The notes below the pieces were generated by a model. That model saw only the letters and a program-made list of their open reading frames with translations. It had not been told where the DNA came from and did no database searches. Shown piece by piece: positions 21,642 to 29,155 of a DNA stretch of 64,000 nucleotides. This DNA comes from a virus. Its lineage: Duplodnaviria; Heunggongvirae; Uroviricota; Caudoviricetes. The stretch is from the IMG/VR virus record IMGVR_UViG_3300020042_002824; one strand, given 5' to 3'. The first letter of the stretch is position 1. Each line of letters starts with the position of its first letter. The translations under genes and the position numbers were made by a program.

Positions 21642-21992
21642 TTATAATAATTCATCAGGTATTTGAGGATACTTATGCCATTCCCACCATTCTGACCCAT
21701 CATATTCACCTCTATCCATCCATACACCATTTGTAAGCCATATATAACCAAATACATATTGAGCACCATAGCCTTCATCATATCCAAAATCTAGCTTGGA
21801 TAGGAATTCATTGTATTCAGCCTCTGTATGTCCTTTTTTCAATGTAATAGCTGGTGTTTCTACATCGTCTTCATCATCAGTAAAATAACTAGCAGGTGTA
21901 GCATATGTAATATTAGCACATATAATGTTAGCACCATATAGACGCTTGAGTGCATCAAGCTTACCTAATAACTCTTGTTTAGCATTTGACAT
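21642..21992 (-). CDS. hypothetical protein (116 aa)
   Basis: ORF. Confidence 0.5.
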   Translation of the reverse strand: MSNAKQELLGKLDALKRLYGANIICANITYATPASYFTDDEDDVETPAITLKKGHTEAEYNEFLSKLDFGYDEGYGAQYVFGYIWLTNGVWMDRGEYDGSEWWEWHKYPQIPDELL

Positions 21993-21994
21993 AA

Positions 21995-22222
21995 CTAATT
22001 AGTTTTTAATAGTGATATGGATTCATCGTTATCTTCTGACAAAACTCCATACATAATAAATGTCATAAGAGAATAGAAAAACTGAACTGCTACAAATACA
22101 CCAGATGTAACAGCTTCTGTATAACTAAATGAGAACCATGTAGTTAGCAAAAAGAATGCTACTAACATGTAAGGAATGCTCCATAGGAACATAATGTTAA
22201 TGAGATGTTTGATTAATTTCAT
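21995..22222 (-). CDS. small membrane protein (2-3 transmembrane helices)
   Basis: IMFLWSIPYMLVAFFLLTTWF and GVFVAVQFFYSLMTFIMYGVL. Last gene of the leftward block. Confidence 0.45.
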   Translation of the reverse strand: MKLIKHLINIMFLWSIPYMLVAFFLLTTWFSFSYTEAVTSGVFVAVQFFYSLMTFIMYGVLSEDNDESISLLKTN

Positions 22223-23040
22223 GTGAATGTATGTTAATTGATTGATTATTAATGTGTTGTGTAAATAAAAATTTGATAGGCTGAGTGTTGACCTTCAATG
22301 TTATCATTTTCACAATGTTACCATTGCTTATACACACCAAGAATTACTTCTTAGTAGATAACAGTACCAGTATTTTACCTCACTCCTGAGGGATCTTTCT
22401 CTAGTTTAAATAAGTATTAATTTCTACCAAGTGGATTGGATAATCCTAAGCTACATCCCTGCAGCTACTTAGATATACTTTTTTTACTTCACAATTTTCC
22501 TTTCAGTACTAATTGTGCTGTCATTTTACATACAGATAAGGTACTTTGAACTAGAGAACTAACAGACTTTGTGAATTATTAATTTAATAATTTACAATAG
22601 CATAGTCCAGAACGTGCCATCAGATTATAGCTTACTCCCTTTTGAGGAATACGTACTATAACGTCCCAGTATAGATTACCAGTCTATGGTAGTTTAAGAT
22701 GCTATTACCACACCTTTGTCTACTGAATAACGCAGTTGTTCTTTTGGTAAAGTACTTCCACATATATTCTACAGGTTTTATCCTATTGCAGTTTCCTGCT
22801 CAATGGTGTATGCTGACACCATAGCTACTCAGAGGTTTCCCCACTATAGCTGTTACCCATTTGCTTACTTGGCCAGCACGAAGCTGTAGATATGCACTTG
22901 TTAATACATACCTTTTATACCTGTCACCAGGTTTATCCTAAAGACTATAAGCAGCCTTATCAAATTAGTTGACAATCAAGTTGTCTTTACGTGTACACCA
23001 TGAGTATTTCAACTCTGAAGGTTTTGATGTCGTACACTTA

Positions 23041-23068
23041 TCATTATAATCAGATTTGATTATAATGA
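23041..23068. repeat. perfect 11-bp inverted repeat (TCATTATAATC agattt GATTATAATGA)
   Basis: Read directly; inside the ORF-free region. Confidence 0.45.
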
Positions 23069-23410
23069 ATATACATTCAGGTATATCAGCCTACACAGTC
23101 TTGTAACTATAACTGGACTGTCCCACGCCAGCAACTTACTGGATACTGCTACATTTACAACGCTAGATTGTTCAACCTAGCCTTCTGTAACAGGAGAAGC
23201 ATAATGTATTAGTATAGGTTTTCAACTAATACTTGTAGCGTTTTCGTCCACTATTATAATACTCTTGTACTCAATGTACGTATGACATATCTTTTTGTCA
23301 GAATATTATATTCGTAGCTACATTATGAATCCCTCTGTACTCAAATGTGAGGTAGGTAGTCATTTAATCCTCATCTCATCTGTCTATCCTTGGGAAATAG
23401 AAATGGTACA

Positions 23411-23683
23411 TTATAACATGTCAGAATTAAATGACTCATTAAACTCATTAGCCATATCACCATTAAGAATTGAACTACTATAAGAAGAAGCAAAATCTAA
23501 CTCATAATAACCATTATGTTTATTAGCCATAAGTTTAGCATCCTCTAATGTATCTGTAAACCCTATATATCTATTACTATTATCATAGATAGAATAGAAA
23601 GCGTCATATCCCATATAAATGTTATTTAATGCTATATATATTGTTTGTATAGCGTAAATGAATGATGTGTCAAAATGTGTCAA
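23411..23683 (-). CDS. hypothetical protein (90 aa)
   Basis: Isolated ORF in the switch region. Confidence 0.4.
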   Translation of the reverse strand: MTHFDTSFIYAIQTIYIALNNIYMGYDAFYSIYDNSNRYIGFTDTLEDAKLMANKHNGYYELDFASSYSSSILNGDMANEFNESFNSDML

Positions 23684-23791
23684 TAAGTGGGGAAAGAGTA
23701 CACACCACCTCTCACAGCCACAGATAAAATGTTGAGAATCAATAGGTTGTCTCTCTTTTTACGCAACAAAGGTTCTATGCAAGTATAGAAA

Positions 23792-23825
23792 ACAAGAGAA
23801 CAGGCTTGTTAGCCCATTCTCTTGT
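23792..23825 (-). terminator. putative rho-independent terminator for gene 23837..24226 (9-bp stem ACAAGAGAA/TTCTCTTGT, then a T-run on the minus strand)
   Basis: Inverted repeat 12 nt downstream of the minus-strand stop, followed on the minus strand by TTTTCTATAC. Confidence 0.45.
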
Positions 23826-23836
23826 TAATGCTTTGA

Positions 23837-24226
23837 TTACAAAGCAAGTAATTCTTCTGGCAAGAACTCTTCGCTTCTCTCGTAAGAGACAACTTTGATG
23901 TCCTTCATTGCAATCTCTTGAACTGCACCTGTTCCTGGCATTGAGACAAAGGTGATTCCTTCTTCATTTTCAAGCAATGACAAGCCTGCAATCTCGTGGA
24001 TTGTAATCTTGCCTGCTCTAATCTCTTTGCTCAATTGCGCAGAGCAAGAAACAACACCTGAATTACCCTTGCTGTCTTTTAACAACAATGCAACACGCTT
24101 TGCAGGGTCATTAAGGTTCTTCCTGATGAAAGAGATAGAACCATTCTTGCCAATTAATTGGGCAATTGTACCATTGTCAGTTAATTCTCCTGACTGTCTT
24201 GTGTAGGCTGATAATTTGAATGCCAT
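23837..24226 (-). CDS. hypothetical protein (129 aa), stand-alone transcription unit
   Basis: ORF with its own downstream hairpin plus T-tract (23792-23825). The G-tract repeat region lies upstream. Confidence 0.5.
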   Translation of the reverse strand: MAFKLSAYTRQSGELTDNGTIAQLIGKNGSISFIRKNLNDPAKRVALLLKDSKGNSGVVSCSAQLSKEIRAGKITIHEIAGLSLLENEEGITFVSMPGTGAVQEIAMKDIKVVSYERSEEFLPEELLAL

Positions 24227-24256
24227 AGTTTTCTGTTTTTGTTTTTAATTAATAAT

Positions 24257-24440
24257 GTCAAGCGATGGGAGGGGTATCCCAACACTCTCAATTCTAGGAG
24301 GGGTATCAATAGGGAGTAGGCTCCCCTCCCATGGATATAATAAGAATGGGGGCTATGTAAAATTTTGGGGTGCTAGGGGGGATAGGTCTGTAAGAACAGG
24401 GGCATATAGAAAATTGTGTATATTATCAAAGCAGGGGATA
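24257..24440. repeat. array of ~8 G-tracts / GGGG-AT-AG-like iterons in divergent intergenic region
   Basis: GGGAGGGGTATCCC, GGAGGGGTATCA, GGGAGTAGGCTCCCCTCCC, TGGGGGCTATG, TTGGGGTGCTAGGGGGGATAGG, CAGGGGCATATAG, CAGGGGATAGTTCC. Highly atypical for the AT-rich context. Confidence 0.5.
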
Positions 24441-24856
24441 GTTCCATAAGGAACATTGCATGAATTTTTCCAAATTCTTCATGCAGGTTGAACTCTCTGG
24501 AAATTCCAGATGGTTCAGACTTCTGGGTTTGGCTGTGTTTCACTTCCTAGATTGTCCAGTTTATTATATAAAAGACTGGACATTTGTTACCTTTATATAT
24601 AGATAGGTAACATCTTTTGTCAAGCTATCCCTTGACTGTTGTCCCCCTGTGGTCAAGCTATGGCTTTACATAATGTGTCTTATAAGGGACAGGCTAGCCT
24701 TTGTAATGTTGCTTTTATGACACATTATGATATGACTTTACATATAATGATGGAATTATCTTACATATTATATGCTTTATAATATAGGGACCAATATTAT
24801 AATATCTTGTTGTATCAAAACTAGAAAATCCTGCAAGTTTTGATAATAGGCAAAAA

Positions 24857-24864
24857 TAAATTTG
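24857..24864 (+). promoter_or_regulatory. candidate Bacteroidota-type -7 promoter element TAAATTTG (TAnnTTTG) upstream of the first plus-strand gene
   Basis: Exact match to the TAnnTTTG consensus ~80 nt upstream of ATG 24943. The nearest upstream TTTG is only 14 nt away (consensus spacing ~19), so support is weak. Confidence 0.25.
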
Positions 24865-24942
24865 GTGGGTAATATATTTTCACACTACCTTTGAGGGTGG
24901 AGGGTGGGGAATAAACTCCATACACCTCGTCAAACAAGCTTA

Positions 24943-26800: not shown

Positions 26801-27119
26801 AAAAACTACATACATAAATACAGAGCTTGAATGGGCTGAGTCACAACTTATTTCATGGAAAGCTTATGTAAATGCAAACCCACTACATGAACTGAAAGAC
26901 AGGATTGAGTGGAAACCTACAGCTAAAGGAGGACTATTACCTATGGTCATAGCATCTATTGAAGCACAAGGTAAGTTTGTACAAGAGACAATGAAGAACT
27001 ACTTAGCATTAGTAGAGGTGGTAGACAAATTAAGGAATGCTGAAGAAGCTAAGGTGGAGATTAGAGGTAAGGGTGAGTTATCTGGGTCAGCTGAGGAGTT
27101 CCTTAAAAATAGACGATGA
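26787..27119 (+). CDS. hypothetical protein (110 aa); small-terminase position
   Basis: Immediately upstream of, and 4 nt overlapped with, the large terminase gene. No motif support. Confidence 0.4.
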   Translation: MATIKKTTYINTELEWAESQLISWKAYVNANPLHELKDRIEWKPTAKGGLLPMVIASIEAQGKFVQETMKNYLALVEVVDKLRNAEEAKVEIRGKGELSGSAEEFLKNRR

Positions 27120-29155
27120 ACATACAAACTATAGACTATAAGGATTGGTTCATTAACCAGAAAAGAATCCCTGATAGAAATAGTGAAGAGTGTAAACCTT
27201 TTCATGATTTTCATAAGGAGCTTTGTTTGAATGGTGCAATGATGGGTGGGGTTTATATTAACCCCTTTCTTTATTGGCACCTGAACATCTGGCACACTGA
27301 GGTGGATATAATTGATAGTTATGGGAGGATTGCACAGAAATATGCCAATCCCCTATTGAGAGATAATGAATGGCTTGTGACAAGCGAAATTGACAGAGCT
27401 CAAAAAGATAAAAGAGGCTTAGTCATTCTAGGTATTAGACGTTTTGCCAAGTCAGTTTTAGAAGCATCCTATATAGCATGGGGTGCAACCTTTGATGAAA
27501 ACAGTCAAAATATTATTGCAGGCTTAAATGCCCCAGATATTAAACTGATTACTGATAAGATTGATAAAGGATTGAATTTCATTCCTGAGTATTGGAGGTG
27601 GCAGAGAATTGAGGATAATTGGAAGAACCAAGTGACTCTAGGTATAAAGACCAAGTCTGGTGAACGTATCCCTTTCTCTTCCATTCTAATACGTAACCTT
27701 GATGAAGGTAATAATGAAGAAGCAATTGCAGGTACAAAACCACGTAAATTAATTATAGATGAGATTGGTAAAGGAAATTTCCTTAGAGGTTTACAGGCAG
27801 CTATTCCAGGTTTCACTACACCCTTTGGCTGGGGATGTTCTCCAATTCTCACTGGTACTGGTGGGGACATGAAGAAATTCATGGACGCTAAGTCCTTGAT
27901 GTTTGACGTAGATAACTTTAATTTCCTTACATATAACAATGAGAAAGATGACAAACGCATTCATGGCTTGTTCATCCCAGCAAAGTATAGAATGGAGGCA
28001 AAGGAAGATTCTACACTAGGAGCATACTTAAATGAACCACTGAGTTCAGACCTATATCAGGTGAAGATGCTTGTTAGTAATGAAGAGAAAGCTCTTCAAA
28101 TAACCAATGATAATCTAAACAGACTTAAAAAAGCTGGAGATAGAATAGCCTATTTAAAAGAGAAGATGTACTACCCAATGGAAGTGGATGACATCTTTCT
28201 AAATGAGGATACAAACATCTTTGATATTGAGATAGCTAAGAGACAGAAGAGTAGATTGTTACAACAAGAAAGAACAGGTACACCTATTATATTGTTTAAT
28301 GATGAGGGAACTATAAAGCATGAGTTTACAGACAAGCTCCCTATTACAAACTTCCCTCTGAAAAACTCAGATCAGAAAGATGCACCTGTCGTAATATATG
28401 AATTCCCTATAGACAATCCTCCTTATGGATTGTACGTAGCTGGAGTCGATCCATATAGACAAGGTAAGTCTGCATATTCAAGTTCGCTTGGATCTGTATA
28501 CATATATAAAAGGATGCATGAAATTAGTGGAGAGAAGTATCAGGATATGTTCGTAGCTTCGTATTGTGCAAGACCTGATAAGAAAGAAATATGGGAAGAA
28601 CAAGCTAGACTTCTTATCAAGTATTACAATGCTAGAACCCTATGTGAGAATGATGATATATCCTTTATTGAATATATGAAAGCTAAGGGAGATGCTCACT
28701 ATTTAGAGAAACAACCTGAATGGCTAAAAGAGATTGTACCAAACACCACTGTAAAAAGAGATTATGGTATACATCGTTCAAGTGATAAGATAATTGAGTA
28801 CCTTCACACTTGCTTAAAGAAGTATATGGAGAATGCCATATTCAAAGAGAAGAATGATGCTGGTGAAGTGATTAGAGAAGTATTAGGTGTGAGTAAGATA
28901 TTTGATCCTGTATTGCTAGAAGAGATTATACAATACAATGATTCAGGTAACTTTGATAGAATTATTGCTGCTGAATTAGCCATAGCACAAGCTTTGAAGA
29001 TGGACCCAATAATGGGTAAGATAGGAGGTACATCAGATGAGAGAGTGGCATCTATGTTTAACAAGAGGAAGAATAATATACTTTTCACTGAGGCTAGAGG
29101 AAATATGTTTGGGAGATCAAAAAATAAATATAAACGCAATAAATTGTTTTCATAA
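27116..29155 (+). CDS. terL: terminase large subunit (T4 gp17-like ATPase plus nuclease)
   Basis: Deviant Walker A region LVILGIRRFAKSV, Walker B KLIIDEIGKG, coupling-like TGTGGD, and nuclease-domain acidic residues (LYVAGVDPYRQGKS, CENDDIS). 679 aa, directly precedes the portal-sized gene. Confidence 0.7.
   Translation: MNIQTIDYKDWFINQKRIPDRNSEECKPFHDFHKELCLNGAMMGGVYINPFLYWHLNIWHTEVDIIDSYGRIAQKYANPLLRDNEWLVTSEIDRAQKDKRGLVILGIRRFAKSVLEASYIAWGATFDENSQNIIAGLNAPDIKLITDKIDKGLNFIPEYWRWQRIEDNWKNQVTLGIKTKSGERIPFSSILIRNLDEGNNEEAIAGTKPRKLIIDEIGKGNFLRGLQAAIPGFTTPFGWGCSPILTGTGGDMKKFMDAKSLMFDVDNFNFLTYNNEKDDKRIHGLFIPAKYRMEAKEDSTLGAYLNEPLSSDLYQVKMLVSNEEKALQITNDNLNRLKKAGDRIAYLKEKMYYPMEVDDIFLNEDTNIFDIEIAKRQKSRLLQQERTGTPIILFNDEGTIKHEFTDKLPITNFPLKNSDQKDAPVVIYEFPIDNPPYGLYVAGVDPYRQGKSAYSSSLGSVYIYKRMHEISGEKYQDMFVASYCARPDKKEIWEEQARLLIKYYNARTLCENDDISFIEYMKAKGDAHYLEKQPEWLKEIVPNTTVKRDYGIHRSSDKIIEYLHTCLKKYMENAIFKEKNDAGEVIREVLGVSKIFDPVLLEEIIQYNDSGNFDRIIAAELAIAQALKMDPIMGKIGGTSDERVASMFNKRKNNILFTEARGNMFGRSKNKYKRNKLFS

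Follow-up and report, generated by a model that had tools for sequence, protein, structure and literature searches.

The window, by which we mean the whole 64,000-nt stretch of DNA analysed here, belongs to the genome of an uncultured tailed phage. PHROG matches identify RIIA, RIIB, DNA polymerase, terminase, portal, major head protein and large virion proteins. Cultured phages are only remotely related, with terminase identities of 40% to a Leptolyngbya phage and ~31% to Cellulophaga phages; close relatives number in the hundreds in IMG/VR, where their contigs reach ~117 kb. Genes lie on the minus strand left of ~24.2 kb and on the plus strand right of ~25.0 kb, and the cumulative GC-skew minimum coincides with this divergent strand switch (~24.0-25.0 kb). 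Within the leftward gene block we describe a large RNA, together with two short modules on its upstream side; the features to which we refer are listed below.

27116-29155: large terminase subunit (PHROG match)
21995-22222, minus strand: gene for a 75-aa hydrophobic protein, directly downstream of the RNA; context, outside the RNA
22272-23201, minus strand: the whole candidate GOLLD-type RNA gene, ~930 nt (the RNA runs from 23201 to 22272)
22278-22669, minus strand: conserved 3' domain (392 nt), matched end to end by the Rfam GOLLD model RF02032
22398-22407, minus strand: 3' strand of a long-range helix, pairing with 22549-22558; marked by [[ ]] in the Rfam consensus
22549-22558, minus strand: 5' strand of the same long-range helix, pairing with 22398-22407
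22449-22468, minus strand: two AGCTAC copies, forming opposite strands of an AGCUGCA-GGGA-UGUAGCU hairpin (GGGA cap)
22670-22965, minus strand: conserved part of the 5' domain, common to the distant homologues L102, L105, L108 and L111
22823-22828, minus strand: AGCTAC copy (GUAGCU in the RNA), 3' strand of helix 8
22966-23201, minus strand: lineage-specific 5' extension, held in common only with L081
23041-23068, minus strand: 28-nt hairpin, a helix of the variable 5' extension
23202-23325, minus strand: module B, a portable 124-nt non-coding block upstream of the RNA, with a TATAAT box and the GTAGCTAC palindrome
23377-23414, minus strand: module A, the 38-nt TATAATGTACCATTTCTATTTCCCAAGGATAGACAGATG, a -10-like box followed by an imperfect hairpin

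A sequence-only reading of the window had drawn attention to ~1.2 kb without ORFs (22223-23410) and had placed this region at the strand switch. The ORF-free stretch is real, and only its right limit had been set a little too far: the final 116 nt of that interval are overlapped by a plus-strand TTG ORF of 62 aa (23295-23483). When ORFs of at least 50 aa were masked, 22223-23294 (1,072 nt) proved to be the longest ORF-free stretch in the 64-kb window. The placement was mistaken: the stretch is flanked by two minus-strand genes, and the switch lies ~1 kb rightward. The cumulative-skew check that had been proposed gave the same picture, as the inflection falls ~1 kb right of the region and tracks the transcription switch and gene orientation. 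The second-longest ORF-free stretch, 24544-24903, sits at the true divergent strand switch together with the GC-skew minimum, and probably holds divergent promoters. We also observed, between the ORFs 23411-23683 and 23837-24226, a hairpin at 23791-23826 (AACAAGAGAACAGGCT-TGTT-AGCCCATTCTCTTGTT; 16-nt arms, 88% complementary) with fold z-scores of about -4 on both strands. The segment beside it, 23612-23743, is conserved in many relatives, and the hairpin may be a terminator or a regulatory site.

We asked whether the longest ORF-free stretch could have a coding history, and found that all three stop codons are abundant in all six of its frames and that no frame opens when TAG, TGA or TAA is read as sense. 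The longest minus-strand mini-ORF (35 aa, 22656-22763) is interrupted in a relative, L081, by a CAA to TAA change. With no recoverable frame, a mini-ORF that is stopped in L081, and a stretch more conserved than the genes that flank it, the decayed gene that had been offered as one explanation was abandoned. The suggested tRNA cluster fared no better: ARAGORN found no tRNA or tmRNA gene in the 64-kb window, and Rfam reports no tRNA there either.

To define the extent of the conserved element, we compared the locus with metagenomic relatives. The element is 95-100% identical in four other metagenomic lineages with differing flanks. One of these, L081, was found by an exact 24-mer scan of IMG/VR (the 16- to 24-mer scans otherwise returned the chance matches L082-L085); it is 95.2% identical across 22272-23201, and outside this interval identity is at most 73% or undetectable, such that the flanks are essentially unrelated. 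A metagenome 20-mer scan, which returned near-identical copies only, showed the element to be 100% identical in L094, L095 and L096, and L088 retains its last 87 nt. Among 80 TerL relatives searched by blastn (21900-24300) and nhmmer, 22270-23200 was unmatched and the element is thus absent; the only blocks that blastn recovered there were 22206-22267, 23201-23325, 23377-23419 and 23612-23743. A blastn search in distant mode gave no match among 50,697 phage records.

The relatives that lack the RNA carry other content in its place. L086 is 93-99% identical to the window on either side and bears, in place of 22265-23327, a 338-nt segment with a 71-aa ORF and no RNA. At this position, small ORFs or a GIY-YIG homing endonuclease are present in other relatives, and the relatives found through the 75-aa neighbour protein are mostly without the RNA. 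From the alternative content of L086 and these other relatives, we conclude that the locus is a cassette hotspot and that the element is optional. The region that contains the RNA in the window is occupied, in some relatives, by a GIY-YIG/NUMOD3 homing endonuclease gene placed upstream of the 75-aa gene (L089 743-1309 and L092 51-617); the presence of such genes in the same variable stretch supports the view of the locus as a hotspot for mobile cassettes. Comparison with L095 revealed 0 substitutions in 22232-23468 (1,237 nt) versus 49 in 1,381 flanking nt. Because this block of identity is larger than the RNA, it indicates recent cassette exchange and not purifying selection alone. In the genome, the RNA behaves as an optional cassette, sited within a hypervariable part of the leftward block of genes. 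A further observation comes from L094 (1-334), in which the identical RNA is followed by ~245 nt of unrelated sequence and then by a second copy, 79% identical, of the 22217-22269 linker; this arrangement suggests cassette insertion by recombination at repeated linkers.

On the right flank of the RNA (23202-23414) lie promoter-like modules that are conserved in relatives. Module B is 96% identical in L005, L007 and L008, all of which are without the RNA, and it looks like a portable regulatory module. In these three sequences, module B lies directly upstream of a homologue of a 116-aa gene, and both the RNA and the 75-aa gene are absent. The TATAAT box of L081 lies ~50 nt upstream of its RNA, a distance similar to that in the window. 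Module A occurs once in the 64-kb window. More than 20 relatives carry it at 93-100% identity within otherwise unalignable sequence; in L005, L007 and L008, a cassette of ~200 nt has a half-copy of it on either side. Modules A and B probably act both as sources of transcription or processing signals and as joints for recombination.

We then assessed whether the element behaves as a structured RNA. Between the window and L081, all nine changed base pairs stay paired (9/9), two of them through double compensatory changes; a further 25 differences fall at unpaired positions, and none breaks a pair. For example, CCUG-GUGA-CAGG in the window corresponds to CCUG-GCAA-CAGG in L081, and CAGC-UUCGU-GCUG to CGGU-AUUA-ACCG. 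A three-motif gapped scan (TCAAAAG...AAAGUCU...CUCAGCCU), of which 7 of 13 matches were chance occurrences inside ORFs, added two further diverged lineages, L102/L105 and L108/L111/L107. These have a ~690-nt core in common and are ~72% identical to the window over the whole alignment; nhmmer aligns the distant homologues over profile positions 245-950. We combined six sequences in an alignment (A4) whose covariation rests on about four independent lineages. Of the 212 pairs in its RNAalifold consensus fold, 38 show double compensatory changes, and 98.5% of cells are paired. When the 3' partners were slid by 1-3 columns as a control, 34-45% of cells were paired and 0-6 pairs were compensatory, and none of 500 shuffles reached the observed values.

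The same data reveal the strand. G·U pairs make up 17.7% of the A4 cells, and hence just 81% of cells would remain paired if the complementary strand were read. All six GNRA-capped hairpins that we found lie on the minus strand, the plus strand having none (shuffles: mean 0.84, maximum 5 in 2,000), and the loops are either retained or exchanged for another GNRA loop (GUGA/GCAA, GAAA/GUAA). Fold z-scores are -4.2 for the minus and -4.7 for the plus strand, such that energies alone do not separate the two; it is the GNRA loops and the G·U-compatible changes that place the RNA on the minus strand. Together, these results make it almost certain that 22272-23201 encodes a large structured RNA on the minus strand. 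Such an RNA had been among the candidates of the sequence-only reading, and it is borne out by covariation, by the GNRA loops and by a full-length match to the GOLLD covariance model.

The RNA has a two-part layout: a 3' domain of ~390 nt that fits the GOLLD model and a 5' domain of ~530 nt whose conservation is partial, even when its nearest homologues are compared. The two halves evolve separately. The 5' domain (532 nt) consists of 296 nt common to the distant homologues and 236 nt that are lineage-specific. Helices 1-14 of A4 fall within the common part, 22670-22965, and carry many compensatory changes. The extension, 22966-23201, is ~93% alignable with L081, where changed pairs stay paired, and is represented by unrelated sequence at the corresponding position in L102 and L108. 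The 3' domain holds helices 15-33 (A4 columns 321-716), with 15 compensatory pairs and essentially no broken cells, a covariation that is within-subfamily.

Several motifs that had first marked the region could be assigned to this structure. The perfect 28-nt hairpin is present, although its arms are 12 nt (TCATTATAATCA / TGATTATAATGA) with a 4-nt loop and do not form an 11-bp repeat as had been stated; L081 has an identical 12-bp stem, and its loop is 15 nt rather than 4. The 8-bp palindrome, GTAGCTAC, is found exactly where it was reported (23314-23321), outside the RNA and in module B. The four AGCTAC copies also exist, at 22449, 22463, 22823 and 23316 on the plus strand; two of the positions given earlier, 22464 and 22834, were off by 1 and 11. 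Across the window the motif has 66 matches on both strands (~1 per kb) versus 32 in shuffles. Locally there are 5 in 1.2 kb, compared with ~1.2 expected at the window-wide rate, a mild excess that is explained by the motif forming strands of RNA helices. In helix 8, A4 columns 160-165 pair with 137-142 and covary to AAUUGC / GCAAUU in L102 and L108. The AGCUGCA-GGGA-UGUAGCU hairpin is helix 26 of A4 and lies within a 32-nt insertion relative to the Rfam model. We considered AGCTAC and the palindromes as iterons or protein-binding repeats and rejected this idea: the motif is common genome-wide, and three of its copies and the hairpin are strands of RNA helices.

Rfam had been proposed as a check on the region, and a default search was negative: nothing reached the gathering thresholds over the whole window, and E-value mode on 2.4 kb returned only noise. 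A match to GOLLD surfaced when the search was restricted to 961 nt with relaxed filters. Thus, the default scans missed the RNA because its score lies below the curated cut-off and because the speed filters dropped the match on 2.4 kb. With cmscan, the window sequence aligns to model positions 1-416 of 416 (64.7 bits, E 2.6e-16), and L081 (67.3 bits, E 4.3e-17) and L102 (87.4 bits, E 4e-23) likewise match the whole RF02032 model. An equal-size control region scored at most 22 bits (E at least 0.35). Scores of 65-87 bits fall below the Rfam curated gathering score of 150, a value that was not attained at any of the 12 motif-scan loci; four accepted phage GOLLDs from PMC12286853 reach 150.7-216.4 bits.

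The match carries specific features of the family. On the 3' side it stops where the conserved block had independently been found to end, and the UCAAAAG loop, AAAGUCU, the long-range helix and the terminal CUCAGCCU are all present. The long-range helix (22398-22407 with 22549-22558) corresponds to inverted repeat I16 and to helix 20 of A4, and contains one compensatory pair. Compared with the RF02032 model, the window RNA lacks one hairpin, has an additional one of 32 nt, and shows non-canonical bases at several of the model's pairs. In the reciprocal direction, two covariance models built from the last 137-139 nt of the RNAs of this subfamily (R1 and R2) gave 7.7 and 10.1 bits (E 2.5 and 0.73) with the GOLLD of Vibrio phage PG07; these matches are in exact register with the PG07 GOLLD 3' end and are not significant. 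Sequence-only nhmmer profiles of the accepted GOLLDs found no match in the window.

The genomic neighbourhood differs among the lineages. A tRNA starts 5 nt after the RNA in both L108 and L107. ARAGORN calls this gene (L108 3450-3520; L107 622-692) a tRNA-Asn with anticodon ATT, an unusual anticodon, and the call could reflect a miscall or a modified decoder. No tRNA was found in the parts examined of L081, L094-L096, L102 and L105. The window itself, 64 kb of a ~115-kb phage genome with a GOLLD-type RNA, likewise has no tRNA by ARAGORN or Rfam. All four accepted GOLLD loci, for their part, are embedded in tRNA/tmRNA clusters, and in phiCbK a tRNA lies inside the GOLLD span. On this evidence, we consider the RNA to be probably a member of the GOLLD family by homology. 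We file it as a divergent member on account of its sub-threshold scores, the non-significant reciprocal models, the altered hairpins and the lack of a tRNA in the window.

The most serious competitor to GOLLD membership is that the RNA represents a separate, undescribed class of large structured RNA whose resemblance to GOLLD is convergent or reflects a generic architecture. This would account for scores under half the curated threshold when accepted phage GOLLDs reach 150-216, for the absence of sequence-level similarity and the non-significant reciprocal models, and for the one model hairpin that is missing and the one that is added. We nevertheless regard it as unlikely: three diverged sequences fit all 416 positions with E-values of 1e-16 to 1e-23 when the control stays at or below 22 bits, and the match stops exactly at the independent 3' boundary, on the strand that covariation had established. 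Moreover, the weak reciprocal match is in register with the accepted GOLLD 3' end, and one lineage has the typical adjoining tRNA. Could the RNA, rather than stand on its own, regulate the 75-aa membrane-protein gene as an exceptionally long, structured 5' leader? The two are directly adjacent, with the RNA upstream on the same strand and the gene adjoining its 3' side, in the window, L081, L088, L095 and L096, and no strong intrinsic terminator separates them. However, no 75-aa gene follows the RNA in L094, where the downstream sequence differs, or in the L102/L108 lineages; in L108 and L107 the RNA precedes a tRNA and unrelated ORFs, and many relatives have the 75-aa gene without the RNA. 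We therefore give the leader hardly any credence.

A DNA-level element, such as a replication origin or recombination hotspot with hairpins acting in DNA, would suit a position within 1-2 kb of the transcription switch and skew minimum, the presence of palindromes, and the 1,237 nt of complete identity with L095/L096, which exceeds the RNA and points to exchange by recombination. In the covariation, though, G·U is tolerated only on the minus strand, the GNRA loops are conserved, and there are no iterons or tandem repeats. The nearest relatives do without the RNA region, which rules it out as an essential origin. An origin, as the sequence-only reading had entertained, is likewise contradicted by this absence from the closest relatives, by the lack of iteron-like repeats and by a skew inflection that follows the transcription switch ~1 kb off. 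We regard a DNA-level element as largely refuted and extremely improbable. Slightly less remote, and still very improbable, is a protein gene in decay or what is left of a mobile element, for instance an intron that has no ORF. A cassette hotspot that in relatives contains small ORFs or a GIY-YIG homing endonuclease, and a presence/absence polymorphism with sharp borders, are what such a remnant might leave behind. Yet stops occur in all six frames, the element has 0 substitutions relative to L095 when its flanks have 49, and the changes seen among the homologues are compensatory and not codon-like. Rfam, including searches with lax filters, finds no group I or group II intron family in the region. 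The flanks of the element are not two halves of one gene, and no host gene is interrupted, as the downstream 75-aa gene begins at its own conserved MKLIKH.

We thus return to a divergent GOLLD as the preferred reading of the RNA. It would be transcribed leftward with the neighbouring small genes, probably from the promoter-like modules at 23202-23414. By homology with other members of the family, it would fold without protein and self-assemble into a multi-subunit RNA cage during infection. Our tentative proposal, which we hold to be possible and somewhat short of an even chance, is that the six aligned RNAs form a deeply divergent, sub-threshold GOLLD clade, a self-contained promoter-plus-RNA cassette that moves through the leftward hypervariable stretch of uncultured ~115-kb phages, often with no tRNA neighbour. 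If the family assignment is right, GOLLD members exist at under half the Rfam cut-off and are dropped by default speed filters, an annotation blind spot, and a GOLLD gene can stand away from tRNA islands, among the small genes of a leftward block, which would broaden the family. Close phage relatives that differ by the presence or absence of the RNA cassette would then offer comparative material on GOLLD function. Should the proposal of a divergent, mobile clade be true, GOLLD function would be independent of tRNA islands, and near-isogenic phages with and without the RNA, such as the window phage and L086, would provide a direct way to probe the role of the cage.

Three known systems invite comparison. 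The promoter-early stem-loop (PeSL) bounds hyperplastic regions in T4-type phages and is repeated before many early genes. Module A resembles it in combining a -10-like box with a hairpin, in being nearly invariant amid differing cassettes, and in the half-copies that flank the L005 cassette. Unlike PeSL, module A, a putative promoter, occurs only once in the window. ROOL (RF03087) is a large, ornate phage and prophage RNA that forms RNA-only cages (PMC12286853). The window RNA is likewise large, ornate and phage-borne; however, a search for RF03087 with lax filters gave no match at E-values up to 10, and whereas the 5' and 3' halves of ROOL are intertwined, those of the window RNA evolve separately, as in GOLLD.

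Few non-coding RNAs of bacteria and phages are larger than the GOLLD RNAs; the members that have been solved have a protein-free fold and self-assemble into RNA cages of 10 to 14 subunits during phage infection. The family is characterized by a universally conserved 3' region, a variable 5' region, a length of more than 800 nt and carriage by phages or prophages, and its members often, though not obligatorily, lie beside tRNA genes (PMC12286853, PMC12990946). Examples include env-38 (833 nt, a 14-mer cage) and the Streptococcus agalactiae GOLLD, and copies are found in Caulobacter phage phiCbK, Vibrio phage PG07 and Mycobacterium phage PegLeg (PMC12286853, PMC12990946). The window RNA shares with them its carriage by a phage, a length of more than 800 nt, a conserved 3' domain of ~400 nt, a variable 5' domain and many GNRA loops; it also shares the full-length model fit, the UCAAAAG loop, AAAGUCU, the long-range helix and CUCAGCCU, and in a sister lineage the abutting tRNA. 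It differs in residing among the small genes of a hypervariable leftward block and not in a tRNA island, and in a window that has no tRNA or tmRNA, genes that are present at all four reference loci. On this comparison, the RNA is best described as a divergent new member of a known RNA family, and not as a new kind of system.
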